NCBI RefSeq assembly: GCF_036507355.1
Contig: NZ_AP027877.1
Source: Escherichia coli
GTDB taxonomy: Bacteria > Pseudomonadota > Gammaproteobacteria > Enterobacterales > Enterobacteriaceae
Strand: one strand, 5' to 3'
Length of the DNA: 64,000 nucleotides
Position numbers and translations under genes: made by a program. Below, one piece after another: positions 1-16,187 of this stretch; the first letter of the stretch is position 1, and every line of letters starts with the position of its first letter. The notes under the pieces are model-generated. The model searched no databases. It was not told the DNA's origin and saw nothing but the letters and a program-made list of their open reading frames with translations.

Positions 1-161
1 TGAAGGCCGCTGTCACTGGTCTGGGTCAGGCGGGTGGAGTACATCGCGCAGAAGGTCGAGTTGGTTATCATCTGAGCGTCAGCCTGCTCGTCGGCGAACG
101 CGCTGTGGCTGAAGGCGGAAAGCAGAATTGTGGCGGTTAACAGTTTTAAAATTTTCATCAT
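1..161 (-). CDS. Secreted protein, N-terminal part only (gene continues beyond window start)
   Basis: Minus-strand ATG at 161-159 gives MMKILKLLTATILLSAFSHSAFA/DEQ..., a typical Sec signal peptide; frame stays open to position 1. Not in the ORF track because it is truncated by the window edge. Confidence 0.4.
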   Translation of the reverse strand, partial: MMKILKLLTATILLSAFSHSAFADEQADAQMITNSTFCAMYSTRLTQTSDSGL

Positions 162-453
162 GTTCCCTTATGGATTGAAAAGCGGAGACAGCCTGCCATA
201 CAGGGTGGTCAGGAGATGTCCGGCAGAGAAAAAAGTCAGGGTTTCAGCGAGGGAGCCAGTCGCCAGCGGTGAGGGCCAGCAGATTCGAGCACAAAGGCCA
301 GTTGAGCGAGGTCCCGTCTTGCGGTCCGGGGAGATACGTCAAACTGCCGGATGATGTAGCGAACAGATATTGTCTGACCGTAAAACAGCACCATGGTCAG
401 CCGGATGAGCCGTTCTCCCTGTCCGGTAGCGTGTTGCCTGCGACGATTAACGT

Positions 454-918
454 TCATCGTTGCCATACGCGCCATCGGTCCCCTTTCTGAAAAGAATCGA
501 GGTGTCTGGCAAGCCAGATATCAGGGCATGAATTGCCGGTAACGCAGCGGGCAGTAAACCGGTGGCAGTTAAAGTCGAGCAGGCTGTAGGGATAGCGCTG
601 ACCCACTGCCGCCTTTGCCCGTTCAGCGGCCTGCGCACAACCCTGAGGCGTCAAATCCATACAATCGGTATACACCGAGATAGCGGAGTTCCAGCCATCG
701 AGCCGGTCAAGAAACCCTTTAGCCTTACTTTTGATAACGGTTCCATCGCCATCAAGATGAACAATATCGCCGTTACCCACATAGATACCGCTGTGTGCGG
801 CAAGGCCAAAAAGCAGTTCGCACTGCACGATACCACCGTAAGCCGGTTCATCGACGCAGGAGAGAATGCAGTTATCGATAAATGAATCCACGAAGTTCAG
901 CAGCAGAAGCCGGTACAT
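454..918 (-). CDS. Permuted NlpC/P60 (LRAT/YiiX-like) Cys-His hydrolase-family protein
   Basis: ORF 454-1089; likely start at internal Met (MYRLLLL...). His-box HSGIYVGNGDIVH precedes Cys-box NCHRF, the LRAT-type permuted order. Confidence 0.45.
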   Translation of the reverse strand: MYRLLLLNFVDSFIDNCILSCVDEPAYGGIVQCELLFGLAAHSGIYVGNGDIVHLDGDGTVIKSKAKGFLDRLDGWNSAISVYTDCMDLTPQGCAQAAERAKAAVGQRYPYSLLDFNCHRFTARCVTGNSCPDIWLARHLDSFQKGDRWRVWQR

Positions 919-976
919 AACATTCAGTTCCTTACTACGGGGGAGAGGGGGGATGCGGGGGAAACGTAGTGAACAC

Positions 977-1405
977 TCAGCTTTCCCACAACGTACGGAC
1001 CGTGAAAACCCCCATATCGTGGTAAGCCATAAAGTTACTTTCCCATAGCGACCAGAACTCACGGGCGTCGACATGAGAGATATCGCCACAACGGGAAAGC
1101 CACGTGTATTGTTGCGTCCAGCTCACATCGACATCTTTTTCAAGCTCAGGCCATGGATGCCCTGCATAATGAAAATCGGTGACGTAATCGAGCTGCCAGT
1201 CTTCTCCGGCAGGGATGAGGCGTATTTCGACCGGATGCCAGCCGCCCTTTTCCGGTGAGTATTCAGGGTCACGGAAGTTAATGGTTAATCCGGTGATGGG
1301 GTGACGATGAGGCGGTTTTTGCGCGAGGATATCCAGAAGCAGTTGGGTGAACGACCGGGAGAGAGGCAGCACATAGCCGCCCTGCAATATTACGGGTGAT
1401 GACAT
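977..1405 (-). CDS. Hypothetical protein (142 aa)
   Basis: Six-frame ORF, same strand and tight spacing with neighbouring ORFs; no family recognised. Confidence 0.4.
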   Translation of the reverse strand: MSSPVILQGGYVLPLSRSFTQLLLDILAQKPPHRHPITGLTINFRDPEYSPEKGGWHPVEIRLIPAGEDWQLDYVTDFHYAGHPWPELEKDVDVSWTQQYTWLSRCGDISHVDAREFWSLWESNFMAYHDMGVFTVRTLWES

Positions 1406-1451
1406 AGTGAATTTCCTGATTTTTGGTTAACAGAACACAGAAAAAGCGGGG

Positions 1452-1883
1452 TTAGTCCTGGCTGAGCGTAGCAAGCTGCGTCATACGATGCTGCCAGTCG
1501 GCATAGCAGCGGTGCATAAAGAGTCTGCTGCTGTCCGCTTCGATAAGGCAGATATCCGGACTTCTGAGTACGGCGGCAAGAAACCCGGCGTTGTTGGTGC
1601 TGCCCTGACCAAATAGTGGTCGAAACACACGCGACGGAAAGCTGTCCTGCTGCTGTTCAAGAATGGCGTGAATCGCATCAAGCGTTATCCATTCACGGGA
1701 GAACAGGCCTCCTTCGCCATTGGCGGTTAAGCGCAGGGCGAGGCTTCCGGTTTCATCCTCCTTACCCAGCTCATACGTCAGCAGTCCCTTACTGTGTGGA
1801 CTGATTTTCTCGGCTTCACCCCTGTAGAACACGGTATAGCTTTCGGTGACGGCGGCTTCGGTAGCGACTTTTTTCTTACTCAT
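1452..1883 (-). CDS. Hypothetical protein (143 aa)
   Basis: Six-frame ORF in apparent leftward operon; no family recognised. Confidence 0.4.
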   Translation of the reverse strand: MSKKKVATEAAVTESYTVFYRGEAEKISPHSKGLLTYELGKEDETGSLALRLTANGEGGLFSREWITLDAIHAILEQQQDSFPSRVFRPLFGQGSTNNAGFLAAVLRSPDICLIEADSSRLFMHRCYADWQHRMTQLATLSQD

Positions 1884-2247
1884 GGTTCAGCGCCTCAATC
1901 AGGTTCTGGAGTTGAGTGATAACGGTCGTGTCCGGGAACACCAGATAGATACCCTGTCCGTTATCGCAGACGATACCGAGCAGGAGATACCAGCCATCAT
2001 CAAGTGCGGTGACGTATTCCGGGTTAGCCAGTGCCACTGCCAGCAGCGGGTCTTCGGGGAGGGTGTCATCGTGGTTGAGATGCCAGAGCAGGGTTCTTGT
2101 TTCTTTCCAGAAAGCAGTAAACAGGTCGATATCATCTACGGGGCCAAGAATTTCATTGCTGAGGGCTTCCAGCGCGGAGGCTGGCAGGTTGAGAAGGGAA
2201 ATACTGGTAGGGGTTGTGAGTTTGTACATAGTTATCTCCATCATCAA
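1876..2247 (-). CDS. Hypothetical protein (117-123 aa)
   Basis: ORF with GGAG Shine-Dalgarno upstream of the internal Met (MYKLTTP...), so the start is probably 2229; stop overlaps next gene start by 8 nt. Confidence 0.4.
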   Translation of the reverse strand: MMMEITMYKLTTPTSISLLNLPASALEALSNEILGPVDDIDLFTAFWKETRTLLWHLNHDDTLPEDPLLAVALANPEYVTALDDGWYLLLGIVCDNGQGIYLVFPDTTVITQLQNLIEALNHE

Positions 2248-2457
2248 TCGAATATCATGGAAATAATATGTGTCCGTTTTAAGGGCTATTACAGGCTTGG
2301 TGTGTTGGATTTGTTTTTCTTATTACGAACAAATAGCGACTGGCTCAGGCCGGGATTGTTTAGAGACAGATTCAGCATAGATTCGTAAAAATAAAAACTA
2401 TTAGCGCGAGATCCTCTGTTTATGCCGTGACAGTTAACTGATAGGAGGCTTGTTGGT

Positions 2458-3161
2458 TGGATTTGCCCCTATATTTCCAGACACCTGTTATCACTTAACC
2501 CATTACTGGCCCGCTGCCGCAGATATTCCCGTGGCGAGCGATAACCCAGCGCACTATGCGGATGCCATTCGTTATAATGCTCGAACGCCTCTGCAAGGTT
2601 CTTTGCTGCCGTTAACCCGTCTGGTTTGGGCATGATACTTATGTAGTCACGCTTTATCGTTTTCACGAAGCTCTCTGCTATTCCGTTACTCTCCGGACTC
2701 CGCACTGCCGTGTTCTTCGGTTCAAGTCCCAACATCCTGGCGAACTGACGTGTTTCATTCGCCCGGTAGCATGAACCATTATCCGTCAGCCACTCCACTG
2801 GAGACGCCGGAAGCTCGCTGCCAAAGCGGCGTTCCACTGCTCCCAGCATGACGTCCTGTACTGTTTCACTGTCGAAGCCACCCGTTGTGACCCCCCAGTG
2901 CAGTGCCTCACGGTCACAGCAGTCCAACGCGAACGTGACCCGCAGTTTTTCTCCGTTATCACAGCGGAACTCAAACCCGTCAGAGCACCATCGCTGATTA
3001 CTTTCTTTCACAGCCACTCTGCCGGTATGTGCCCGTTTCGATGGCGGTACAGCGGGTTTTCGCTCAAGCAACAGCGCATTCTGGCGCATGATCCGGTAAA
3101 CACGTTTGGCATTGATCGCAGGCATACCATCAAGTTCTGTTTGTCTGCGAAGCAGCGCCCA
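2458..3161 (-). mobile_element. IS2 remnant: right inverted repeat plus 3' part of orfB (IS3-family transposase), 5' portion deleted
   Basis: ORF 2469-3125 matches the IS2 OrfB C-terminal region as I remember it (...[36 protein letters not shown]...[12 protein letters not shown]); terminus TGGATTTGCCCCTATATTTCCAGACA at 2458. Similarity stops abruptly near 3161. Confidence 0.8.
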
Positions 3162-3636
3162 TAACGCAGCCCTTGCCTTACTGGTGTTTCTGGCCCTGAC
3201 CGGATTACGCCTTGGTGAAACCCGTTATCTTCTGCTTGAGGATATCGACTGGTCCCGTCAGACCATCACTTTGCGAGAAACTAAAAACGGTAAGCTTCGC
3301 TGTGTGCCAGTGGGTGATAAGGCCTTTGTTCTTCTGACTGAGCAGCGCCAGCACTTGGGCGATAAAGGCTGGGTTTTCCCCGGCTATAACACAACTAATC
3401 CGGTTGCAGAACCACGCCGTCTGCAAAAGCGTATATGTGAGAAAGCCGGTATTTCACCATTCACTATTCATGAGATGCGACACACTTTCGCCACGAAACT
3501 TATCGAGAGTGGGGCTGACATCCATACCATCAAAGATTTACTGGGCCACAGCACCATAAAGGTTACCGAGAGGTACCTACATGGCAGCCCGGTGCGCTAC
3601 CACGAGGCCATTAACAAGGCGATGGATACGTTCTAG
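3160..3636 (+). pseudogene. Tyrosine recombinase (phage-type integrase) C-terminal catalytic fragment, N-terminus missing
   Basis: ORF 3106-3636 carries integrase catalytic motifs (HEMRHTFAT, LLGHSTIKVTERYLH) but only ~160 aa; directly abuts the truncated IS2 segment. Confidence 0.7.
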
Positions 3637-3717
3637 GTATAAGCATAACTATCCACAGGCAGGTTAGTTCCTTTTTCCCTGCACGCGATTTATCTGTTTT
3701 TAATTGAGGATTAGATA

Positions 3718-5643
3718 ATGAATAACATAGTGACACCCGCCCCCTTAACGACAATGGCGCGTTTTGCCTGTTCGAAACTGAATGGATTTCTGGCTCGTCG
3801 GGCTTTGCATCAGGCAAATGCGAAGAAAATCCTTAAAAAGGCAATTGCAATCAGCATTGCGGTCGATGAGATTTCGGCAAAAGGGGGGCGTGATGGTCTG
3901 CCTGATGGGTTTGTTAACTCACCGCATGGGCTTTTTTATGATGATGGCAAAAAAGTGTTTCAGCTCAGTTCTACTGCTATTGTTCCCGTCAGCAGGCATT
4001 ATTCAGCGTGTAAGAAGCGCAATATGGGTGTCGAACTCATGACCATTAATCATGCGGGTCAGTATGTCTGCGCTGAAATTTCACTGAGCAACGTTACGCT
4101 AAACCCCGATAGTGTGATTGGCTCCCTGACAGCGCAAGGTTTCGGTATCCCTATGACGGTAAAGACGAAAGAGCTGTTGGCGCAGTTCTTACAGACATGT
4201 ATGAAGCAAGCGCTGGCTCTCCCTACCTACCTTGTCGCTGATTCAATGGGATTTGTACCCGGCAAGAAAGCGTTCTTACATGGCAATATGCCTTTAGCAC
4301 AGAACATCCCTGGGTTTGATTACCTTATTTCCGTTCAGCGTACACCCGCAGGGATCGTTGAGTCCGGCACGCTGGATGCGTGGAAGGCTCTGGTGAAAAA
4401 GAATGTCCATGGATGGCCACAGATTTTTGCATTGTGTTCTGCCTTTGCGTCCATGCTGGTTGCATTGTGTAAAATGGATGTGGCGATGTTTCACTTCTAT
4501 GGTGGGTCAACGACTGGAAAAACGATCCTTCTCCAGCTTGCGATGTCAGTTCATGGTCATGGCGGGGAGCCGGGAAGTGGAAAGCTTGTCAATGTTCTTC
4601 GCTGGAATACCACGGTGAATGCGCTAGAGAAGCGACTGAGTCAGTTCTCAGGCCTGCTGGCATGTGTGGATGAGTTGGGGGCTTATAAACAAAAGGACTT
4701 CGCTTCGCTCCTGTACAACATTACCGCCGGTCAGGGTAAAAGCAGAATGGACAAGAATCTGGATATACGTGAGCTTTATACATGGGAAATGTTAATTCTC
4801 TCCGCAGGTGAAATGTCCATTTCTGAGAAGCTAGCGACGGAAAAAGAACATCTTCAGGGTGGACAGGAACATCGCGCCATTAGCCTCAATGTTTTGCCTG
4901 AAGATGCCCGTAAAGACGGCGAATCATCAGAAAGGGTACGCTGCCGCGCTGATAGTCTGAAAAATGGCCTGAGTGAAGTTTATGGTACGGCGGGTAAGGA
5001 ATTTATTGCTAATTTGCTGGCACTGGATAATGACGATGATGAACCGCAGTCCTGGGATGAAATGTGCCTGTCTATTCAGGGGGCAGTAGAAGAACAACGT
5101 GACAGTCTTGTCGGTGAGCTGCAGGAAGAAGGTTATGCACTTAGTGACATTCAGCTGCGTGCATTAAAACGATTTTCCCTATGTTTGTGTGCCGGAATCC
5201 TGGCAGCATCATGGAATATCCTTCCGTTCAGTGAAGATATTATTAAGGGTGCGGTAATGAGCGCGGCTCGTCGCTGGCTGGATGATAAACCAAACCAGTA
5301 TAGCCCACTAAAGCAGGTGCTTACGGCTATCCAGCACGATCTTCTCACAACCAGAGCGTCCCATTTAATGCCGTTGCTTGATGAGGATGCGCATACCCCA
5401 TACAACCACTGGGGGTACACGGATAAGAACGATAACATGATGATTTTCGCTCCTGTTTTTGAAGGCTGGTGTGCCAAAAAAGGCATTAAACCTGCTGATG
5501 TGGCGAAAGCATTGGCAAAAAAAAATCACCTCAAACCAGAAAGTCAGGGCCACTACAAAAAACGTCCTCAGAAGGGAGTTCAGCAACCTTTTTATCTGGT
5601 TATGAATACATTTCTTGGCTGTAACATTGGCGCTGACTTTTAA
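3718..5643 (+). CDS. DUF927-like protein with P-loop NTPase (primase/helicase-like replication protein of integrative elements)
   Basis: 641-aa ORF with Walker A GGSTTGKT and Walker B-like CVDELG; architecture recalled from P4-like/integrative-element replication proteins. Confidence 0.55.
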   Translation: MNNIVTPAPLTTMARFACSKLNGFLARRALHQANAKKILKKAIAISIAVDEISAKGGRDGLPDGFVNSPHGLFYDDGKKVFQLSSTAIVPVSRHYSACKKRNMGVELMTINHAGQYVCAEISLSNVTLNPDSVIGSLTAQGFGIPMTVKTKELLAQFLQTCMKQALALPTYLVADSMGFVPGKKAFLHGNMPLAQNIPGFDYLISVQRTPAGIVESGTLDAWKALVKKNVHGWPQIFALCSAFASMLVALCKMDVAMFHFYGGSTTGKTILLQLAMSVHGHGGEPGSGKLVNVLRWNTTVNALEKRLSQFSGLLACVDELGAYKQKDFASLLYNITAGQGKSRMDKNLDIRELYTWEMLILSAGEMSISEKLATEKEHLQGGQEHRAISLNVLPEDARKDGESSERVRCRADSLKNGLSEVYGTAGKEFIANLLALDNDDDEPQSWDEMCLSIQGAVEEQRDSLVGELQEEGYALSDIQLRALKRFSLCLCAGILAASWNILPFSEDIIKGAVMSAARRWLDDKPNQYSPLKQVLTAIQHDLLTTRASHLMPLLDEDAHTPYNHWGYTDKNDNMMIFAPVFEGWCAKKGIKPADVAKALAKKNHLKPESQGHYKKRPQKGVQQPFYLVMNTFLGCNIGADF

Positions 5644-5818
5644 GAGGGAGCAGGAATAGAGATTAAATAATATAAGGTTAATTAAGATTTTCCGTGCCGT
5701 AATTTAAATTGTAGGATCCGGAAATATAATCTGAATGCTCAGAGGGCAGGTTGTGCACAAAATGGGCATTTAATTTTTTAATTATTCAACATATATATCA
5801 ACTAAAGGTAATTTTAAA

Positions 5819-6238
5819 ATGTATCATACAACTCCTGATGAATGTCCTGAGTTTCCACAGGCGATTAGTTCCGAAAATGTGGGGAAAGTAAAATTTACAC
5901 GTTACAGGCTCTTAATGACACAGGCTCAATGCAATTTTTATGGTATTCAACGAGAGATTTTTGATGGCGAATTTCCTGCTCTTAGAGCAATTGTTAAAGG
6001 TGATTTTCAAATCGAATTTTTTGTGAAATATAAGTGTAGAGGGCTGGATTACTATGGTTCTCTTGGTGATTGGCCTCATATGACAATTAGTGATGCAAAA
6101 GAAATCGCAGAGGGAGTTTTCAATAACTGCGATGACTCCCACCGTAATAACTGGGAGGGTGAAAATGATAGCGATAGTATCGAAGAAGACATGATGAGCT
6201 ATTTTGAAAATGGTATTCCATTCGGCAATAATTCATAG
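5819..6238 (+). CDS. Hypothetical small acidic protein in very AT-rich segment
   Basis: 139-aa ORF with no recognisable family; surrounding 5640-6300 is conspicuously AT-rich. Confidence 0.35.
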   Translation: MYHTTPDECPEFPQAISSENVGKVKFTRYRLLMTQAQCNFYGIQREIFDGEFPALRAIVKGDFQIEFFVKYKCRGLDYYGSLGDWPHMTISDAKEIAEGVFNNCDDSHRNNWEGENDSDSIEEDMMSYFENGIPFGNNS

Positions 6239-6335
6239 GTTTATACTGGATTTTCACGTCAGTAACGAAATCGAAATTCGCACATGAAAACATCTATATC
6301 TATGAGGTAGTTACTTATCGATAAACGACTGTGAA

Positions 6336-6364
6336 AGCAGAGGGGCGGCCCCTCTGCTTTTTTT
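6336..6364 (+). terminator. Rho-independent terminator hairpin between convergent genes
   Basis: GCAGAGGGGCGGCCCCTCTGC stem followed by a T-run. Confidence 0.5.
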
Positions 6365-6365
6365 G

Positions 6366-7553
6366 CTACAACGTATCGGGTAACTGAGCGCGGATACGTT
6401 CCGCCAGTAACTGACTGGTGTTCTGTAAGCGCTGAGGATGAAGATGTGCATAACGCTGTGAAGACTGACTGCTACGGTGCCCCAGTTGAGCCTGAACGTC
6501 ATATAGCGTACCGCCGTAGGACACGATGAGGGCGGCAACCGAATGGCGGCAGGTATGGATACACACTTCCTTGTCGAAAATTCCCGCCCGACGCACGATA
6601 CGCTGAAAGGCTTTAACCGGGTTACTCAGCGGCATTCCCTGTTTTTTACCAATAAACAACCACGGATTTCCCCGCTGCGTTGGCAGCGTTCTGATTACGT
6701 CCATCGCCAGTGAGTTAAGGTGAACAATCCGTCCATAGCCATTCTTGGTTTCAGGGAGCCACAGGGTGCGTTTAACCGGGTCAACATGCTCCCACTTTGC
6801 CAGACGCAGCTCATCGCGGCGAAGGCCGGTCAATAACAGCAGTTTGACATAGCGGGCAGCTACAGGGCTGGTATCGTTATCGGCGGAGAGAAAAATACGA
6901 CGAATTTCGTCCTCGGTAAAATAACGCTGTCGGGCGTTGTTCTCCCTGAGTAGCTGTACCACCCTTGCCGGATGAACAGAGGTCATGCTTTGCCTTCCGG
7001 CCCATGTAAAGACGGCTTTAATGAGTACGATGACACGGTTACAGGTAGCCGCTGACAGGGAAGTACTTAACGTCTGCTGAAGGCGCAGAATGCTCGCTGG
7101 TGTGATATCGCTCAGCAGCCTCTGACCAATGGCGGGACGGATATGATCGCGGTAGCGCTGAACATCCTTTCCCCAACTGCGTTTAGCGGATTTTGCCCAT
7201 GGCAGATAATGCTGATTAAAGAGTTCATCGAACGTCAGCTCCATTCTCTTGTTTTCACGCTCCTGCTTAGGGTCAGTGCCGGTGGCAAGGGAACGTTTGT
7301 GTTCTATGGCAATCTGACGGGCAAGATTGACGTCCACTTCAGGCCAGTGACCAATGGCGATGGCGCGTTTTCGTCCATGATAGAGGTAGCGGAGCAAAAA
7401 CTTTTTACGACCTTCTTTTCTGCTGACCAGACACTTGAGGCCGGAAATCTCGGTGTCGCTGTATTCGGCATCGGTGCTGCGTGCATCTGATGTGTTAGGG
7501 GGCAGTGATTTAATGAGCTGATTAGTAAAACGGAAGCGTTTGGGAGTGGACAT
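6366..7553 (-). CDS. int: P4-type tyrosine integrase
   Basis: 395-aa ORF with arm-binding-like N-terminus and catalytic R..HxxR..Y region (HTCRHSVAALIV, LGHRSSQSSQRYAHL); lies 7.3 kb from tRNA-Phe and is transcribed away from it. Confidence 0.85.
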   Translation of the reverse strand: MSTPKRFRFTNQLIKSLPPNTSDARSTDAEYSDTEISGLKCLVSRKEGRKKFLLRYLYHGRKRAIAIGHWPEVDVNLARQIAIEHKRSLATGTDPKQERENKRMELTFDELFNQHYLPWAKSAKRSWGKDVQRYRDHIRPAIGQRLLSDITPASILRLQQTLSTSLSAATCNRVIVLIKAVFTWAGRQSMTSVHPARVVQLLRENNARQRYFTEDEIRRIFLSADNDTSPVAARYVKLLLLTGLRRDELRLAKWEHVDPVKRTLWLPETKNGYGRIVHLNSLAMDVIRTLPTQRGNPWLFIGKKQGMPLSNPVKAFQRIVRRAGIFDKEVCIHTCRHSVAALIVSYGGTLYDVQAQLGHRSSQSSQRYAHLHPQRLQNTSQLLAERIRAQLPDTL

Positions 7554-7985
7554 ATAACCTCCTGTGACTGGTGTAAAGAACGTCAGGGTTGACCCATCCC
7601 CGGCACGGCGTTGTTAATGGCTAAGTTGATTTTCTGGCATGGCGAAGGGAATGCTGGTGCCACATGGTATGAATTAAGACGGGAAATGCAGAAAGAGCAG
7701 GCTTTACGGTCTGATTCTGGTCTTAAGGGAAAAGATTGCCGTTGGGGAAGAGTTCACAGAAATAATATGTGTTTCAGTCTAGAACAATTACATGCCATGA
7801 GGATCAAGAGAGTTGCCCGTATATGGCAGGTATCAAAGTTGGTTATGGATGTTGCCAAAACATAGTGGGGATGGATGTTGAAGTGCTAACTTGATGTTTT
7901 TAATGGGAAAGTGTAAATTGCGTGATGCGTTGCACTCATGTAGATAACACCATTGAAAGTATCAAATTGTTTGAAAAAAAATCAT

Positions 7986-8056
7986 CTTTGATCAACCTTA
8001 AGATTGTTTCTAGATGGTAAAATCTTCATATGGGAAAGAGCTCACTGGTAAGGAAG
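7986..8056 (+). promoter_or_regulatory. Putative promoter and RBS for the four-gene operon
   Basis: AT-rich divergent intergenic region; TTGATC ... TGGTAAAAT (extended -10-like) and AGGAAG 10 nt before the ATG at 8067. By eye only. Confidence 0.25.
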
Positions 8057-8066
8057 ACAAATCCTG

Positions 8067-9119
8067 ATGGGGATCATCGTACGAATTCTTAAAGCTAACC
8101 ATGGCGATTGCATTTTGGTGAGCCATGAAAGCGGTTCAGGCACTCTCAACTTGCTCATTGATGGGGGACCTGCGACGACATTCAGGTATGGCATTAGGCA
8201 GCGCTATTCTGGAGCATTGAGTAACGCTCTCGATGATCTGAAAGGAAAGGGGCAAAACATTGATCTGGCTATCCTGACCCACATTGATGATGATCACATA
8301 AATGGTTTTATCAAGGCATTCGAAAGTCCAAACTATCTGCGTCAGCTGGTTAAATCGATCTGGTTCAATTCTTCGAGGTTAATCACACATCATTTTAATG
8401 TGCCTGAAATTTGTGAAAATAATATTTTCTTGCAGGAAGTTTCCCCTGAAACTAGCGTTAAACAGGGGCAAGAACTTGAGGCATTACTTGATGAAATCGG
8501 ATGTGTGCGAGCACCGCTCATTATGGCAGGGCAAATCTACAAAGTAGGCCCGATTACTTTAACAGCACTTTCACCTGAACGAAGACAACTCGAACAGCTT
8601 TTGCATAAGTGGCCAACGGAAGTAAGTTCAGCTGACACTTCTTCATATGAGAATGATTATCACCGTTCATTGGACGAAATTTGGGCAGATGATAGATTTG
8701 AATCTGACTCATCTATTTATAATGGAAGCTCAATTGCATTTTTACTGGAAACAGATGACAAAAAAATGCTTTTTTTAGGAGACGCCAATGACCAAGTTGT
8801 TACAAAAAATTTAAGAGCATTGGGCTATAGCGAAACAAACAAGTTGAAGCTGGATCTGGTTAAAGTTTCGCATCATGGTAGTCAATACAACACAAGCAAC
8901 GAATTTCTTTCAATACTAGATTCTCCATGCTTTGTTATTTCAACCAATGGTTCGAAGCATGGTCTTCCTAATAAAAGGACTATTGCAAGGATCTTAAAGG
9001 AAACAGATGGTGATATTTATTTTAATTACAGCAATGTAATTACTCCGCTGCTTTTAGCGCATGAAGCTGAGAGCTATTCTTCTCGTCTAAAAGTGCTAGG
9101 TGATGAGATTAAATTCTAA
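8067..9119 (+). CDS. Metallo-beta-lactamase-fold hydrolase (putative nuclease)
   Basis: 350-aa ORF with MBL motifs in canonical order: LIDGG, THIDDDH (8278-8298), FLGDAN, VSHHGS. Confidence 0.7.
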   Translation: MGIIVRILKANHGDCILVSHESGSGTLNLLIDGGPATTFRYGIRQRYSGALSNALDDLKGKGQNIDLAILTHIDDDHINGFIKAFESPNYLRQLVKSIWFNSSRLITHHFNVPEICENNIFLQEVSPETSVKQGQELEALLDEIGCVRAPLIMAGQIYKVGPITLTALSPERRQLEQLLHKWPTEVSSADTSSYENDYHRSLDEIWADDRFESDSSIYNGSSIAFLLETDDKKMLFLGDANDQVVTKNLRALGYSETNKLKLDLVKVSHHGSQYNTSNEFLSILDSPCFVISTNGSKHGLPNKRTIARILKETDGDIYFNYSNVITPLLLAHEAESYSSRLKVLGDEIKF

Positions 9120-10419
9120 CATGACAGTTTACGAAATAATGCAGTCCCACTGCGTCATGGTTAATGGTGGCAGTGGTGTGCTAGTTAATGCAATGACACT
9201 GGATTACACATATGTACTGACTGCATACCATGTTATTCGTGACACTCTCGATAATATCGAAGTTACCGATCACAGTGGCAATAAACTTACAGTATTAGCT
9301 GTGCTCCTATATCCAGATATTAAATATTTGAACGAATCCCATAATGATTTCGCAATTTTAAAAATTGAATATCAACCAGAAGTTGCACAAAGTTGTTTTA
9401 CTGCTTCGACGTTGCCTCCTCGTGCTGAGCTTACATTAGTAGGATTTCCAAACACTGAAAGAAGGAGTTCGGATCCTATAAAATATTATGATGGACATAT
9501 GACTAGCGTGGTCGATGAGCTTGTCATTTTCACTGTTGATGGTGTACCAGGCTTAGCCACGATAAAGGGGATGTCAGGTGGAGGTGTATATCACATAGTT
9601 GGTAGAAATACATTTCTTGTTGGTGTTGAGTTTAGGATGGATGGCACTGAAGAGGAACAACAGTTTGGCCGAGTGCAATGCCATAGCTTAGCAAAGTTTG
9701 ATGAAATAATAAGAGCATACGATAGCGCACCGATGATTCCTGCCCATTTGGAATGCTTTTCTCGAATACAAGACAAAATATTTAAATTTAATGTTATTGA
9801 TCAAAACAATGTTCGTAATCTTAAAGATGCGTTAGAAGCCCTTTCCAGATCACTTATAGCTAGTGGGATGTCTCCGCCTTACAAAATCATGGGGCAATAT
9901 GGATTACAGCTTTTGATGGATCCCAAAACTCCTAATGAGCTCAGTAATAAAGAGTTATGGATTTCTTATTTTGAATTTTTAGTTATTTGCTCTGTGATAG
10001 ATAATGTTGGAATTGTGGATGATGCATATATAAAAAGCTTGGAGCGAAAGCGGCGGCTATTATATACCAGTAATGGTGCGAACTGGATTAGCCATTTGGA
10101 AGAACTACTCAAAACGGCACGAAAACTTTTAGATAAGGATGGCACTTTAATCGTTGCATCACCTGATGCTGCTGCAAGTGTCTTGCCTCCGAACTTTCGA
10201 CTTAAAAACGTAATAAGTAATATAGCGGTAGTGCCAAACCAGGGGCCGTTTGCTATCGATGAAGTTGAAAGTTCTATTTATACAAGCTTCAAATTAACTC
10301 ATCTGGAGGGACTCCGCAAAAGCTGCGTAATAGACCGTGAGGATGAATATCTAGTAGTTCCAGCAGGTGTACCACAATTGCAGTTATTTAAGGAGAAGCT
10401 TAATGAAATTATTAAGTAA
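9100..10419 (+). CDS. Trypsin-like serine protease domain fused to a ~250-aa C-terminal domain of unknown function
   Basis: His (LTAYHVI), Asp (NDFAILK), Ser (GMSGGGVY) in S1 order in the first ~170 aa. Start ambiguous (GTG 9100, ATG 9103 or ATG 9121); overlaps or abuts the upstream stop. Confidence 0.7.
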   Translation: MMRLNSNMTVYEIMQSHCVMVNGGSGVLVNAMTLDYTYVLTAYHVIRDTLDNIEVTDHSGNKLTVLAVLLYPDIKYLNESHNDFAILKIEYQPEVAQSCFTASTLPPRAELTLVGFPNTERRSSDPIKYYDGHMTSVVDELVIFTVDGVPGLATIKGMSGGGVYHIVGRNTFLVGVEFRMDGTEEEQQFGRVQCHSLAKFDEIIRAYDSAPMIPAHLECFSRIQDKIFKFNVIDQNNVRNLKDALEALSRSLIASGMSPPYKIMGQYGLQLLMDPKTPNELSNKELWISYFEFLVICSVIDNVGIVDDAYIKSLERKRRLLYTSNGANWISHLEELLKTARKLLDKDGTLIVASPDAAASVLPPNFRLKNVISNIAVVPNQGPFAIDEVESSIYTSFKLTHLEGLRKSCVIDREDEYLVVPAGVPQLQLFKEKLNEIIK

Positions 10420-10942
10420 GGAAGTCGATCTGAGTATTTTAAGTGTGAAATATGATAAAATCAGATTTCACATGTATTGCTCAGATGATCCACTTTCATT
10501 TATTTCCTGTATAGTATGTGTATGTGAGACTTCAGCCGATATTTTGGAGAATTGGCGTACTATTCAAAATGTGGTTTCTGTTCACTATCAACCATCGGGT
10601 GACTTAGCATCTTGGAATATGTATATTGTTTTTTTTACAACTGATGTTTTTCCTGTATGGGAAAAATATGAAATAGAAAACAATAAGTTTGCTGCTCGCA
10701 AGATAATTATTGATAAATTCTCAGGTGCCCCCACCTCTGCTCAGTTAGTTACTGAGTTGCAAAAATATTTGTTGGGAACAGACTTAAGACTTGATCCGCG
10801 AGTCAATGAGTCAAAAGAGGCTTTATTGTCTTTAGATAAATACGTTCGTGGTGCTCCATTAGATTCAAAGAATGAGTCCAGAGAAATCCGCGCCTCCATG
10901 GTCAATGAAATAATTAAATTTTTGAACAAAAATGAAAATTAA
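10403..10942 (+). CDS. Small protein of unknown function (possible adaptor component)
   Basis: 179-aa ORF from ATG 10403 with AGGAG upstream; overlaps previous gene end by 17 nt and next gene start by 11 nt. Confidence 0.55.
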   Translation: MKLLSKEVDLSILSVKYDKIRFHMYCSDDPLSFISCIVCVCETSADILENWRTIQNVVSVHYQPSGDLASWNMYIVFFTTDVFPVWEKYEIENNKFAARKIIIDKFSGAPTSAQLVTELQKYLLGTDLRLDPRVNESKEALLSLDKYVRGAPLDSKNESREIRASMVNEIIKFLNKNEN

Positions 10943-13900
10943 AAAAGTTGAGATTGAAGCATTTCGTGCCTACAAATCTAGGTCAGATGGCACGTTTGAT
11001 TTCACGAATGATGGAGATGTTGCTGCAAATTTTGTTGCGATCTATGCTCCGAATGGTTTTGGTAAAAGCTCCTTCTACGATGCTGTTGAATGGGCAATTA
11101 CCAATCACATGGCAAGACTTGGCGGAGAATATAATAAAGCTAATTATGAGAACGCTGCCAAAATCACCAAGGACGATAATGTTGGGCAAGAAATTTTACG
11201 TAATAAATATGTAGATAAAAATATACGCACAAAGGTAGTGGTATCAACCACTCGACCACTCCCTTTTGAGCGTAAACTACCCAAAGTCAGATCTAATGGG
11301 CGTGATTTGCGATTCGGAGATAATAGTCAAAGAGAAAATGATTTTTTCCGACAAGTGATTCTAAGTCAAGATGAAATTGATAGATTTCTCCGAGAAGCCA
11401 AACCGCAAGAGCGCTATACGAAATTTATGGAAAGTTTCGGTGGAGATATTGAAATTGCCCGTAAAGAGCTGTCAGTACTTATAAATGATAATAAGATTGA
11501 GTTGAATAATCTCAATAAAAAGAGAGAATCTATTCTTGAACAATTAAAACAACCAATAGATTCTTCAATTTTCCAAAAATTCAATTCTATTGCTGTTGAA
11601 TTGAATAAGTTGGGTGAAAATATTCAATTACCTGACGAGAGTTTTTCATCTCAAGATGAATATGCTCTTAATGTTAGTCTTATATCGCGACGCCATGAAC
11701 TCGACTCATCACGTTTAACGAACAATCGAACGGTAGAAGCACTGGAAGACAGGCTTCTAAAAATATCTGAAACTGAATTACATGTCCGCAGTTTAGCAGA
11801 ACAGAATTTACATCTTGCTAAATTAGTGAAAGGAGTGGCCGACGCTGATAGGTACCAATCACTTTTGGATTCATACGAAAAATGTGCAGAAGATCAGAAA
11901 ACCACACACATGCATATGACTCGTATTATAGAAGTGATTGATTGCCTTGATGATTTTCTAAAAATTGAGTCTCATCTTCTTGAGTTGTCTACTAGCCAAA
12001 AGATAATTTCTGAAGAACGCACCAAGATCTGTGCGCAGCTTGCAGGTTTTGAAACAACAATTAATCAATTGAATAAGGAGCTTAAGGCTGTAGATGATAG
12101 GGTCGCTATACTTAGGAAGACCGTTGATAACGCCGGGCAAGTATATTTGGAGCTCGCAAATAACCGGGCTCGGGTAAGTAACCTAACACAGCAAATATCA
12201 AAAAAAGAAGTTTCTATTAAGATAGATAAATCTAGGCTTGGGGAGTTGAATCGTGAGTTGACTAGACTTTCTGAACTCAATATTAATGCCACCTCATTAT
12301 CAAACGGAAATCTAGGGACCTTACTTTTAGAACCTACGAAAGTTGAGCAGCTGACGAGATGTTACGCCGAGTTTGATGTGATTGAATCACAAATTCAAGC
12401 TGTGCATGTTACTCAAAAAGCATTATCTGAACAGATGGAATTGCATGAACGACTGATTGCCATTGGAATTGACTATCTTAGTGTACGACCATCCAGTATC
12501 TGTCCTTTATGTACAGCTCCTCACCCATCTGCGGACGGTTTACTGGATAAAATTAAAGGGCGGAACCTTTTATCAGAATTAAGTGAGGAGAATTCTAAAC
12601 AGCTTTTATTTTTCTCTACACGTCAGAAAGAAATTCTTCAATCAATTCAGGATATTACTCAGTGCGCAATTGATTCAAAGGCTCAGTTGATTATTAACTT
12701 AAACAAGGAATTGAGTGAGACTGACGAGAGACTTACTCTTGCAGGTAGAGATATATATTCAATAGAAGCAGAGTTAAAGACTCTTGAGAAACGGACCACA
12801 GAGTTAGAAAGTTTAGTTTGGGCACTTTCACATGATGAACTGGTATCCCGAATTGAAAAAGAAATTGGTGAGCTTTCAATCAAAAGTTCAAAGCTCCTAG
12901 AAGGAAAAGCATTAATTACCCCTCAGGTTGAAATGCTTAATGAATCACTCAAAGAAAAAGACTCTGCGCAGCAAAAAATAGCTTCGGAGTTGGAAGGTAT
13001 CTTTAGCGGAAATATCTACATTACAGTTTATAAATACTTAAATGAAAATGCGATTTCGTCTTCATCCCTCAAAAGTCATACTGAAAAAAGGAAACTAGAG
13101 ATTGAGGCTGAAATAATTAAGTGTAAAACCACTATTGAGTTTTTGACTGAACAATGTGCTGTTTTACAGCAAAAAATGTTAAGTGATGGTATGTGGGTGG
13201 ATTTTGTTCAGTTGAAGCTGCAAAAAGAATCTTTAGAAATAAGTGTTGCCCGCTCTCAATCAGTAATTAACACGTTTTATGAGAGTTTATCTAACCTTAT
13301 AATTATCCGTCCTGAGTACAGTCTTGAAAAAGTCAAAGAGCTCATAGCTGCGAAAGTTCAGGATTGCCATCTTCGTACGAAAGAATTTGATAGGCTCTCA
13401 AATAATATTAATTTACTCATAGAACTTATGAGTTCGTTTAAGCCATATATTAAACATACAGCTCTTCAGAAAGATTTAATGGCTGAAGAGATGTTAATAA
13501 AACAGCGTGAACGGGTCGACACTACTTTAACCGCAGAAAGAGATGCAATAGTGGATAGCCTGAAACTTCTTATCAATAATTTCTTCTATGAAGATCTTAT
13601 TAATTCTATTTATAAGAAGATAGATCCGCATCCTGCCTTTAAAAAAGTAGAGTTTAAGGCTGACTTTGATTCTGATAAGCCAGGCCTAAATATTGTGGTT
13701 AGTGATGAGGTTGGAGAGCAAATCTCGCCAATACTTTATTTCAGTGCGGCTCAAACGAATATTCTAAGCTTAAGTGTCTTTTTAGCTAGTGCACTTCATG
13801 CGAAAGACGATGAGGGTAATCCCATCAATGTTGTTATGATTGATGACCCAATTCAGTCAATGGATTCGATTAATATACTCTCTACGATAGATCTTTTAAG

Positions 13901-14063
13901 AAGTATATGTGTTCAATTTGATAAACAAATTATTATTTCAACGCATGATGAAAACTTCTTTGCCTTACTCCAGCGCAAAATCCCTGCCCAAATTTTTGGA
14001 TCTAAATTCTTGCAATTGGAAAAGTTTGGTGTAGTCGTCCCGGTGCAACCCTTTGTGAACTAA
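10932..14063 (+). CDS. SbcC/Rad50-like ABC ATPase with long coiled coil and central CxxC zinc hook
   Basis: 1043 aa: Walker A NGFGKSS (Lys codon 11064-11066), Q-loop ILSQDE, CPLC at 12501-12512 (residues 524-527, mid-protein), signature-like FSAAQ, Walker B VVMIDDP, H-loop STHDE. The middle ~600 aa are heptad-rich and Leu/Glu/Lys-rich. Confidence 0.8.
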   Translation: MKIKKVEIEAFRAYKSRSDGTFDFTNDGDVAANFVAIYAPNGFGKSSFYDAVEWAITNHMARLGGEYNKANYENAAKITKDDNVGQEILRNKYVDKNIRTKVVVSTTRPLPFERKLPKVRSNGRDLRFGDNSQRENDFFRQVILSQDEIDRFLREAKPQERYTKFMESFGGDIEIARKELSVLINDNKIELNNLNKKRESILEQLKQPIDSSIFQKFNSIAVELNKLGENIQLPDESFSSQDEYALNVSLISRRHELDSSRLTNNRTVEALEDRLLKISETELHVRSLAEQNLHLAKLVKGVADADRYQSLLDSYEKCAEDQKTTHMHMTRIIEVIDCLDDFLKIESHLLELSTSQKIISEERTKICAQLAGFETTINQLNKELKAVDDRVAILRKTVDNAGQVYLELANNRARVSNLTQQISKKEVSIKIDKSRLGELNRELTRLSELNINATSLSNGNLGTLLLEPTKVEQLTRCYAEFDVIESQIQAVHVTQKALSEQMELHERLIAIGIDYLSVRPSSICPLCTAPHPSADGLLDKIKGRNLLSELSEENSKQLLFFSTRQKEILQSIQDITQCAIDSKAQLIINLNKELSETDERLTLAGRDIYSIEAELKTLEKRTTELESLVWALSHDELVSRIEKEIGELSIKSSKLLEGKALITPQVEMLNESLKEKDSAQQKIASELEGIFSGNIYITVYKYLNENAISSSSLKSHTEKRKLEIEAEIIKCKTTIEFLTEQCAVLQQKMLSDGMWVDFVQLKLQKESLEISVARSQSVINTFYESLSNLIIIRPEYSLEKVKELIAAKVQDCHLRTKEFDRLSNNINLLIELMSSFKPYIKHTALQKDLMAEEMLIKQRERVDTTLTAERDAIVDSLKLLINNFFYEDLINSIYKKIDPHPAFKKVEFKADFDSDKPGLNIVVSDEVGEQISPILYFSAAQTNILSLSVFLASALHAKDDEGNPINVVMIDDPIQSMDSINILSTIDLLRSICVQFDKQIIISTHDENFFALLQRKIPAQIFGSKFLQLEKFGVVVPVQPFVN

Positions 14064-14559
14064 AGTGCTTGCACTGCCTCTAAACAATCTGCATGCACAT
14101 CTCGTTGACTAAATTTGAAACGAGATGTGCATTGCTCGTTATAAAAATAAGGCATGTTCTAATTATCCAATCCCCATCAGTATAAGTGGGTGGATAGATA
14201 TATTTGGCCCCTTTAACAGATATGTTAATTTCCACTTTTCGCTTACAGTGGACCTGCAGCTCAGTAACTTACTCACTTTGTGCTAGGAACGGGCATTGCT
14301 AATAGTCAGAGTGTATGACCTGCTCATCGTTGATTAAGGACAGCGCTGTACTGGTTCGTTGAACCCACGGCTCACAACGGACACTCAGGTTATTATTCCA
14401 ATACGTTTAGCTCAAGTAGTATTACTACGGATAAATCATTTTATGATGGCGTGGAGAACGGGGGGATTCTGAAAATGGTAAGAAGTGAAAGGGCAAGAAG
14501 AGCTTGTTGCAGGTGGACGGACTGGTGAAGATTCCCATCTGGAGGGTGTATGCTGCCAA

Positions 14560-14730
14560 GTTTCCCCGCTTGCTATTGGGGATTTCCCCACCTTATTCCC
14601 CGCGACAAAATCATGTTAAGACCAGCGGATTAAGGAGAAATGATAATTCCCCCGTTTTCCCCGTATTTTCTACTTCATTATGAATGATCTGAGAGAAAGG
14701 AACCGTAGAGGACCGTAGAAAGACCGTAGC
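14560..14730. repeat. Clustered short direct repeats (five TTCCCC motifs at 14561-14663; three ACCGTAG repeats at 14702-14729, ~10-11 bp phasing)
   Basis: Read directly from the sequence in the 840-bp non-coding stretch between the operon and tRNA-Phe. Confidence 0.4.
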
Positions 14731-14899
14731 AGTGAGGTTAGGAAAAGGTACATCAGAGGATGTTGAGGTGTCTAAAAGTAACGAACATCTGCGAAAATGG
14801 CGAGAAATCCAGCAAACAAATAACGTGTTGCAACGACCAGAAATCTACCGTAGCCAAGAAAGGAAAAAGCCCCGCTTTGCAGCGAGGCCTTATGAATAT

Positions 14900-14975
14900 T
14901 GGTGCCCGGACTCGGAATCGAACCAAGGACACGGGGATTTTCAATCCCCTGCTCTACCGACTGAGCTATCCGGGC
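14900..14975 (-). tRNA. pheV: tRNA-Phe (GAA anticodon)
   Basis: Reverse complement reads GCCCGGATAGCTCAGTCGGTAGAGCAGGGGATTGAAAATCCCCGTGTCCTTGGTTCGATTCCGAGTCCGGGCACCA, the E. coli tRNA-Phe as I remember it; position next to yqgA-speC indicates pheV. Confidence 0.95.
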
Positions 14976-15080
14976 AACGGGGCGCATTAAACCTGATTCG
15001 CCTCGTCTCGTCAATCAAATTTCTTCAATTTACTGCAGACTGCACAATCTATCATCACTTTGCCGCTATTGCACGCATTG

Positions 15081-15790
15081 TCAGGCAAACCAGGCGGTCC
15101 AGGTGGCGGAAAGCGGCATTGCCAGAAGGAGTGCTGGAAGCATGTTGACCACCGGGAACATTTTAATGCCACAGATGCGTAATCCGGTTGCCAGCAGCAA
15201 TAAACCGCCTACGGCGCTGAAGTCTGCCATCATCGACGGTGTGGTCAGCGGTAATATCAGCGCGGCAGCCCACGCCAGCGTTAACTGGATGATCAGTAAT
15301 GGGATACTAATTACCGACACCGCAATACCCAGCGAGCAGGCGAAGATCATCGCCGTAAAGAAATCAAGAAATGACTTGGCGATTAAAATACTCGGATCGC
15401 CGGTCATCCCTTCGTTCATCGCCCCGAAGATCCCGGTGCCGCTGGCGCAAAACAGGACAATAATCGCGACATAATTCTGAATAAAAGATTCATGCGCTGG
15501 CTTCTTACGTGAGTGACGAAACAGATTTTGTGCTTTGGCGACCGCTGTATTGACGCCTTTCTCCAGCAGACAAATTTCGCCGATTAATGCTCCGAGTAAG
15601 GTTGCTAAAACCATCGCCGGAAGGTTGGCGCATTTCACCACCAGTAAAATACCAATCCCCAGCGATGCCAGACCAAAAATAGATGTCATGGAGACGCGCG
15701 GATACGTTCCGGTAAGCGTTGGCTGAGCAGTGCGCCGAGAACGCCACCCAGTAATACTGCACTAGCGTTGATAAAAGGGCCGATGACCAC
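15081..15790 (-). pseudogene. yqgA: DUF554 inner-membrane protein, apparently frameshifted near codon 33
   Basis: 202-aa ORF (15081-15689). The 101 nt upstream (15690-15790, GTG start) encode a hydrophobic N-terminus in another frame ending in a stop. 33+202 = 235 aa, the length I recall for YqgA. Confidence 0.55.
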
Positions 15791-16187
15791 AAGAGTTCCT
15801 GTTAACTGTATTGTTTGATTTTCTTATTATGAACTTTTTGCCTTGTTGATGGCTTGTCTGGTCGCAAAGTCCTGGCTTGCACGCTTTAGCGAAAGGTGCC
15901 ATGATTGCGCGAATTTTCTCCTCTCTGTACGGAGTTTGCCCGATGCACGCCACCTCCTTACATTCTCTCGCTTATCGCCGCTTCGCGCGAAACTCTTCTC
16001 TTTTTATGCTACTGCTCATGCGGTGAAGTTAGCGCACGCTCACTGCAGGACAACAGTAAAATCAGAGCGTTTCTGCTTTTACTGATGTCTGGCGGTCGGA
16101 GCTGGTGACCAGTTTGACCCATATCTCATGGGGCAGGGTTTTCCACCTTGTCCGGTATTCTTACTTCCCCGAAACGGGTTTGCGCTT

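Follow-up and report, generated by a model that had tools for sequence, protein, structure and literature searches.

The window examined here, a 64,000-nucleotide stretch of the Escherichia coli contig NZ_AP027877.1 (assembly GCF_036507355.1), carries close to its first nucleotide an array of five small genes on the minus strand (236-2247), called g1 to g5 in the order in which they are read. An initial annotation had described four co-directional open reading frames (ORFs) at 454-2247, ending in a Cys-His protein, and had read them as a possible toxin-immunity or small defence module. The four ORFs are indeed present on the minus strand, but the array does not end with the Cys-His gene: g5 follows (475-236), and more co-directional genes lie beyond it. 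The cluster very probably represents a conserved, integrase-linked backbone operon, carried by a genomic island that integrates at tRNA-Phe and belongs to the pipolin family. Its genes are as follows.

g1: 2229-1876, minus strand; 117 aa; integrase-linked core gene ("orphan")
g2: 1883-1452, minus strand; 143 aa; core gene, putative DNA binder
g3: 1405-977, minus strand; 142 aa; DUF2787 (PF10980), near-core gene
g4: 918-454, minus strand; 154 aa; permuted NlpC/P60 Cys-His-His enzyme of the lecithin retinol acyltransferase (LRAT)/PLAAT type, accessory module member
g5: 475-236, minus strand; 79 aa; short helix-turn-helix (HTH) protein

RefSeq labels g1 and g2 as hypothetical proteins, g3 as DUF2787, g4 as "lecithin retinol acyltransferase family protein" and g5, in every copy, as a DeoR-family regulator. 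Homologue alignments and RefSeq agree on two gene starts: g1 most likely begins at ATG 2229, in place of the TTG 2247 of the mechanical ORF from which the initial annotation had counted; and g4 begins at ATG 918, not at the GTG 1089 of the mechanical ORF list. The junctions are close. The g1 and g2 genes overlap by 8 nt; spacers of 46 and 58 nt separate g2 from g3 and g3 from g4; and the start of g5 precedes the stop of g4 by 22 nt. No terminator-like sites were found between the genes of the array, and the two terminator-like matches in the scan (one of them inside g4) are at chance level. A sigma-70 promoter scan gave no site upstream of g1, and a repeat search of window positions 1-16000 gave short, chance-level pairs only. 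Seven related loci were checked for the 7-bp inverted repeat that lies ahead of g1 in the window (2309-2334); none has it, and it was dropped.

Homologues of the cluster genes occur Gammaproteobacteria-wide. Related loci supplied 31-38 full-length copies per gene, with 27-33 distinct alleles, all intact. The pooled ratios of nonsynonymous to synonymous substitution rates (dN/dS) are 0.135 for g1, 0.094 for g2, 0.214 for g3, 0.147 for g4, and 0.247 for g5. Because these values are low (0.09-0.25) and every allele is intact, g1 to g5 are real genes under purifying selection, beyond chance ORFs.

The island and its pipolin relatives

By sensitive blastn, 113 of the 5,426 E. coli genomes that are complete contain the cluster, in each case whole, on the chromosome and at 94-99% identity. 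Strain YZ22MPE54 (L002) matches the window across 25 kb with 99% identity. Its island spans 30.5 kb, and the 3' half of tRNA-Phe is repeated directly over 50-58 bp at the two ends (L002 coordinates 5040-5096 and 35623-35698). Read from the far end toward the tRNA, the island encodes type I restriction-modification (RM), DUF262, an HTH-WYL regulator, DUF3944, and a secreted protein; then g5-g4-g3-g2-g1, a 398-aa hypothetical protein, and integrase 1; and finally a DUF927 protein, a small ORF, integrase 2, and an ABC-three-component system. In intact copies, the HTH-WYL regulator lies 1.5 kb downstream of the module, and integrase 1, which matches tyrosine recombinase models, flanks the operon. 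A further integrase adjoins the far tRNA-Phe repeat of YZ22MPE54, just past it, which suggests tandem islands.

Strain KCJ3K291 has this island at its other tRNA-Phe locus (cadC-dicD; L166), without the ComEC/Rec2 and ABC-three-component cargo. GSH8M-2 has the same backbone with other cargo, scrambled by insertion sequences (IS). A backbone of WYL regulator, DUF3944, g5-g1, integrase 1, DUF927, and integrase 2 is found at both pheV (as in YZ22MPE54) and pheU (as in KCJ3K291), and the cargo around it differs: an ABC-three-component system, a region with a phosphoethanolamine transferase, or type I RM. Because this backbone recurs at both tRNA-Phe loci with different cargo, the operon belongs to the constant part of the island, not to its variable cargo. 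Further island features in the window are the following.

Secreted-protein gene: 1-161, minus strand, 5' part only, continuing past the window end; 128 aa, signal peptide MMKILKLLTATILLSAFSHSAFA/DEQ
IS3-family transposase fragment: 2458-3160, minus strand; lies where intact copies have the gene for the 398-aa hypothetical protein and ~234 N-terminal codons of integrase 1
Integrase 1, 3' remnant: 3161-3636, plus strand; matches the C-terminal end of the L001/L002 integrase (392 aa) at 100% identity
DUF927/Cch1-like replicative helicase: 3718-5643, plus strand; DUF927 in RefSeq, occupies the place of piPolB
Integrase 2: 6366-7553, minus strand; 395 aa, intact, matches tyrosine recombinase models, kept at 64-99% in related islands
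tRNA-Phe: 14900-14975, minus strand; predicted by ARAGORN; integration site and right island boundary

Scanning metagenomes with the g2 alignment gave 79 loci, which were annotated with iterative profile hidden Markov models (HMMs); 85 loci in all have a g2 homologue. What stays together across them is a unit that runs from integrase through a small ORF (not always present) to g1, g2, and DUF2787, mostly co-oriented and tightly spaced. At 45-60% g2 identity, g1 is present in 24 of 24 loci and g3 in 22 of 23, along with the short HTH gene in 15 of 18 and the HTH-WYL gene in 11 of 15. Even the most divergent g2 loci have a co-oriented integrase about 2 kb upstream in 10 of 14 cases. A Citrobacter locus (L010) has the module without DUF2787, and two distant g2 homologues lie on contigs of about 1 kb, hence without gene context.

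The same unit is known from pipolins. Mateo-Caceres et al. (NAR 2024, PMC11551731) describe the core of gammaproteobacterial pipolins as "IntSXT surrounded by DUF2787, WYL and orphan proteins". They use DUF2787 and two orphans as core markers, note possible pipolin-like islands without piPolB, and class the core genes as non-exchanged, unlike defence cargo; LRAT has no mention in the main text of that paper. Among the loci collected here, six (L119, L122, L126, L127, L129, and L130) encode a polymerase of 864-895 aa that matches Pfam DNA_pol_B_2, and L149 and L154 encode one at 35% identity. On a Vibrio proteolyticus chromosome (L169), integrase, g1, g2, and DUF2787 accompany a 964-aa DNA_pol_B_2 gene. 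The core unit is found in true pipolins with DNA_pol_B_2 at L119, L126, L127, L129, L130, L149, L154, and L169.

Pipolins and the window island have in common an integrase, two orphans (here g1 and g2), DUF2787, and an HTH/WYL regulator, all in the same order. Both are integrated at a tRNA, bounded by direct repeats, and loaded with exchangeable defence cargo, and both have two tyrosine recombinases (assigned here at the level of tyrosine recombinase). There are also differences. The window island uses tRNA-Phe; its integrase 1 is divergent from the operon rather than co-oriented; LRAT is an accessory member, as against the published core; and the 64-kb window contains no piPolB (tblastn with the L129 polymerase, best E 4.9), although this query does recover the polymerase gene at L119, L122, L126, L127, L129, L130, L149, and L154. 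In place of piPolB, a DUF927/Cch1-like helicase lies between the two integrases. Its gene is syntenic with the operon in all DUF927-type loci, and its product is partly similar to the NCBIfam SCCmec Cch1 helicase (E 6e-21, well under the family cut-off). The window island is a piPolB-less relative of pipolins with the DUF927 helicase in the corresponding position, and the change from piPolB to DUF927 looks like a swapped replication module on a common backbone. Since the core survives this swap, it is tied to the integrase or to the host interface, not to replication chemistry.

These findings change the standing of the initial proposal. Its LRAT call, examined below, is correct but was already in the RefSeq annotation, and the module itself has been described as an uncharacterised pipolin core: integrase, g1, g2, and DUF2787 are the published conserved set. 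The proposed toxin-immunity or small defence module lacks support: no PADLOC model matches g1-g4, and the block travels with integrase and replication genes while the defence cargo changes. New are the recognition of the window operon as the pipolin core in a variant with DUF927 helicase and tRNA-Phe, the five-gene anatomy, structural models of the two orphans, and the accessory status of the LRAT gene.

Two other kinds of element were compared. The Gamma-Mobile-Trio (GMT) islands, like other minimal integrative islands, have the concept in common with the window island: a recombinase and a few conserved uncharacterised proteins, with mostly defence or offence cargo. They differ in that their proteins are unrelated to the module; GmtY against integrase 2 is non-significant (E 0.006, far under cut-off). 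A phage origin of the operon was rejected: tblastn of g2, g3, and g4 against 50,697 GenBank phage records gave nothing, and matches to PHROG families therefore probably stem from predicted prophage regions. An IMG/VR scan with the g2 family gave a single match, L086 (IMGVR_UViG_2681813421_000004), with the order integrase-g1-g2-DUF2787-HTH and without LRAT. This contig probably is an island, or an island adjoining a prophage, rather than a virus.

The LRAT-type enzyme and its neighbours

For g4, the initial annotation had proposed an LRAT-type circular permutation, with a His box ahead of a Cys box. That order is read directly in the sequence: AAHSGIYVGNGDIVHLDGDG precedes LLDFNCHRFTARC, and the protein carries HSGIYVGNGDIVHL and, further on, NCHRF. 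Pfam LRAT (PF04970) matches residues 28-129 with an i-Evalue of 3.4e-9; NCBIfam holds no family for g4. The solved human proteins PLAAT2, PLAAT3, and PLAAT4 match in sequence at E 1e-5 to 2e-2 (1e-5 to 4e-4 for the PLAAT2/3 structures), and g4 residues H41, H52, and C117 align with the catalytic H23/H35/C113 motifs of PLAAT2/3. In an alignment of 26 diverse homologues, the most distant at 29% identity, neither H41 nor C117 (the latter in N116-C117-H118) ever varies, and only three sequences have a Q or E in place of H52. Judged by its sequence, then, g4 has the circularly permuted NlpC/P60 architecture of LRAT and PLAAT proteins.

Like the PLAAT/HRASLS and LRAT enzymes (PF04970; PDB 4DPZ, 4FA0, 4DOT, 7ZOM), g4 has the permuted fold signature: one His in HSGIYVG, a second in IVHL, and the Cys in NCHRF. 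The expected chemistry would likewise be that of PLAAT and LRAT, a Cys thioester acyl-enzyme. It differs from them in that the similarity is marginal (E 1e-5), in the lack of the C-terminal membrane anchor of PLAATs, and in features of its own: a conserved N-terminal SFxDNV, a C-terminal WRVW, and two extra invariant Cys. Membrane anchors are C-terminal in PLAATs, and both N- and C-terminal in LRAT. The g4 protein has no signal peptide and, in a hydropathy scan, no transmembrane-grade segment; in lacking an anchor it departs from the LRAT/PLAAT family. The top 19-residue hydropathy, 1.65, is N-terminal (residues 4-22), in a stretch that includes Asp and Asn.

The initial annotation had named two grounds on which its reading would fall: loss of the Cys and His residues, and homology to known prophage structural or regulatory genes. 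The residues are conserved, and no homology to prophage structural genes was found. For that reason the enzymatic call stands, and only the systems-level reading changes.

Within the module, g4 is an accessory gene, lying between DUF2787 and HTH in some lineages only, and it has no obligate partner. Of the modules sorted by g2 divergence, all 21 in the close class have LRAT, as do 10 of 18 in the intermediate and 2 of 14 in the distant class. Conversely, scanning genomes with the LRAT alignment gave 80 loci, in which g1-g3 stand beside LRAT only in Enterobacterales and in one Thalassotalea locus; the other 69 have no conserved neighbour, and even profile HMMs for g1, g2, and g3 came up empty within 5 kb of them. 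In a neighbour-joining tree of LRAT domains (no support values), the enterobacterial module copies form one clade, and the marine module copies L036 and L139 fall among the stand-alone LRATs. Because of this grouping, the tree hints that LRAT was recruited more than once into the same module slot. In an independent pangenome study of Vibrio, an LRAT-family gene falls into one cluster with RNase HI, an integrase, and a pair of DUF2787 genes.

Two stand-alone LRAT loci deserve mention. In Alishewanella aestuarii (L021, 7456-10441), the gene lies directly downstream of Csm6 ring-nuclease and TM1812-family CRISPR-associated genes, and the LRAT subfamily may be linked to type III CRISPR accessory loci there. 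In a Cloacimonadota metagenome-assembled genome (L033, 3072-4674), an ORF of about 330 aa lies immediately upstream of the LRAT gene and matches the profile of the module HTH (g5/WYL regulator) at E 1e-5, echoing the HTH-LRAT adjacency of the window.

The product of g5 is basic (pI 11.9) and resembles the N-terminal HTH of WYL/DeoR regulators. It matches NCBIfam DeoR-type HTH models, the HTH part only of the PADLOC WYL-regulator model (E 2.9e-6), and, locally, the HTH of the HTH-WYL regulator that the island itself encodes (E 1e-4). A small basic HTH protein whose gene overlaps that of g4 by 22 nt, implying coupled translation, could be the antitoxin of an addiction pair, with g4 as an LRAT toxin encoded first, as in HigBA and MqsRA; and toxin-antitoxin (TA) modules are common on mobile genetic elements. 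Such a pair is nonetheless improbable. Either gene can stand without the other: g4 is missing while g5 is present at L086, L117, L121-L123, L126, L127, and L129, an arrangement of piPolB-type loci in the range L121-L130, and g5 is missing while g4 is present at L036, L119, and L139. No small neighbour is conserved at any of the 69 loci with a stand-alone LRAT, and no TA family model matches g4 or g5.

The secreted 128-aa protein, encoded on the strand of g5 from 75 nt beyond that gene, raises the thought of an interbacterial amidase or lipase effector, delivered for example by a type VI secretion system (T6SS), with the signal-peptide protein as its periplasmic immunity partner. NlpC/P60-fold effectors without signal peptides, paired with periplasmic immunity proteins, are known in general. 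For the present locus this is a very poor prospect. The annotated islands contain no vgrG, hcp, PAAR, or any secretion gene; g5 separates g4 from the secreted-protein gene; and full-length homologues of the secreted protein (cluster c31) are confined to close enterobacterial loci, with none in the divergent LRAT-bearing loci L011 and L012 or in any stand-alone LRAT locus. Both the T6SS effector-immunity reading and the obligate TA reading were rejected on these co-occurrence grounds.

The three proteins upstream of g4, all described as unrecognised in the initial annotation, fare differently. NCBIfam has no family for g1 or g2, and Pfam none for g2. The g1 product is a small alpha/beta protein and strongly acidic (pI 4.05). 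The g2 family comprises 707 representative homologues; the AlphaFold model of g2 is confident (pLDDT 92) and shows a winged-helix domain and a three-stranded beta-sheet, preceded by a disordered N-terminal tail that is Lys-rich and variable.

By contrast with that earlier description, g3 is a DUF2787 protein with solved relatives: VC1805 (PDB 2V1L; PMC2883930) at E 1.8e-22 and VC0508 (2W56) at E 2.4e-21. PF10980 is recorded, in precomputed annotation, on close and distant g3 relatives; NCBIfam gives g3 only a negligible PsiB match (E 0.039). The VC1805-type fold is monomeric and p32/Mam33-like (PMC2881812). Presumably g3, with a pI of 5.05, shares this fold, given its clear homology to DUF2787 (E about 1e-22). 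VC0508 (VSP-II) and VC1805 (VPI-2) belong to Vibrio cholerae islands, and g3 too is encoded on an island with an integrase.

The role of the operon in the island

What does the operon do for the island? A function in the island life cycle, be it control of recombination and excision or establishment in a new host, is the most likely one, because the unit persists through the replication-gene swap and stays attached to the integrase; it is proposed tentatively, at somewhat less than an even chance. Backbone position and life-cycle function taken together make the best overall reading, one toward which the balance tips slightly. DNA-binding hints come from the winged helix of g2, the DeoR-type HTH of g5 and the regulator, and the WYL domain of the latter.

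In a possible mechanism, the operon would be co-expressed with the integrase under HTH/WYL control. The g2 and g5 proteins could bind island DNA at att, promoter, or origin regions, and so help to control recombination, excision, or establishment; g1 and g3 might serve as acidic adaptors or decoys. By analogy with PLAAT and LRAT enzymes, g4 would be a cytoplasmic thiol acyl-enzyme that forms a thioester at Cys117 and, once the operon is switched on, would hydrolyse or transfer an acyl chain of an inner-leaflet phospholipid or of an acylated protein.

Several observations pull the other way. The islands are rich in defence genes, and next to the module lies a WYL regulator, one of a type by which defence systems are controlled as well. 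In its tight overlap, the g4/g5 junction is reminiscent of a TA pair with the toxin first. LRAT stands without g1-g3 in 69 other loci, so that the role of g4 need not be tied to island biology. Finally, databases and literature yielded no homologue of g1, g2, g3, or the g4 LRAT subfamily with a known activity, and a literature search found no functional study of DUF2787, VC0508, VC1805, or other module genes.

The first of these observations invites an account in terms of anti-phage defence or abortive infection. The HTH and WYL proteins would de-repress the operon on infection, g1-g3 would act as sensors or adaptors, and an LRAT phospholipase would damage the inner membrane. The host island is indeed packed with type I RM, DUF262, and ABC-three-component systems; the WYL-type HTH models belong to sets of defence and CRISPR regulators; the PLAAT relatives are phospholipases A1/A2; and the stand-alone LRAT of L021 directly follows Csm6 and TM1812-family genes. 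However, no PADLOC-DB 2.0 model matches g1-g4, and g5 matches only the HTH part of a regulator model. The supposed effector is missing from 8 of 18 and 12 of 14 modules in the more divergent classes, while g1-g3 persist and track the integrase. The pipolin authors place these genes in the non-exchanged core, apart from defence cargo (PMC11551731), and no LRAT-containing defence system was found in the literature searched. A defence function is therefore unlikely.

Another account is establishment by way of anti-defence. Here the operon would be expressed with the integrase on entry; g1 and the p32-like g3 would be decoys or inhibitors of host restriction or immunity, and LRAT a counter-measure or exclusion factor. 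Islands of this kind carry establishment-type or anti-restriction genes. The co-orientation and tight spacing with the integrase in most divergent loci fit, as does the acidity of g1 (pI 4.05) and g3 (pI 5.05). DUF2787 adjoins RadC in another E. coli island (L168), and in VSP-II, RadC (VC0510) presumably lies close to the DUF2787 gene VC0508. Against this, acidity is weak evidence by itself, expression at the time of entry is hypothetical, and no similarity to known anti-restriction or anti-defence proteins was seen. This version too is unlikely, and a little more so.

A more speculative proposal, and a distinctly improbable one, starts from the fact that pipolin-family islands encode no recognisable conjugation or virion genes. 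The g1-g2-DUF2787 trio, with LRAT optional, might supply the apparatus for mobility or establishment that is otherwise missing, with g2 marking or processing the DNA of the island and LRAT remodelling the envelope. Were it true, envelope remodelling could serve, for example, vesicle or DNA release or entry exclusion, and a previously unrecognised route of horizontal transfer would be at hand.

The backbone operon of the favoured reading matters beyond this locus. In Enterobacterales and Vibrionaceae, islands of the pipolin type commonly bring defence genes with them and, in some cases, resistance genes. Tractable E. coli strains with islands at both tRNA-Phe loci offer a handle on the role of the pipolin core genes and on island movement.

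The window copy and other arrangements

The window copy of the island is not intact. Window positions 1-2457 are colinear with L002 18837-21293, and 3161-15993 with L002 23884-36714; the 2.6 kb of L002 between these blocks is missing from the window. In its place lies the IS3-family transposase fragment, in which the ORF 2469-3125 has a transposase-like translation and the end at 2458-2500 has thousands of E. coli matches. Because the IS event removed the N-terminal part of integrase 1, the window copy probably is impaired for this enzyme.

The cargo between integrase 2 and tRNA-Phe (8067-14063) consists of a ComEC/Rec2-family (metallo-beta-lactamase-like) gene followed by the ABC-three-component system. 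The latter comprises three genes, the last encoding a 1,043-aa AAA ATPase, according to the annotation of a near-identical strain.

Other arrangements of the module genes were seen elsewhere. On the E. coli contig L168 (9507-10423), a DUF2787 gene at 49% identity adjoins RadC; AlpA and a reverse transcriptase are present in that island, and g1 and g2 are not. Since DUF2787 is paired there with RadC, without g1 and g2, it has at least two distinct island contexts. In five marine loci (L143, L149, L150, L154, and L156), a hydrophobic ORF of about 108 aa lies between g1 and g2. And in the enterobacterial piPolB-type loci L129, L130, and L119, an 85-aa ORF encoding a CxxC...CxxC zinc ribbon lies between the integrase and g1.

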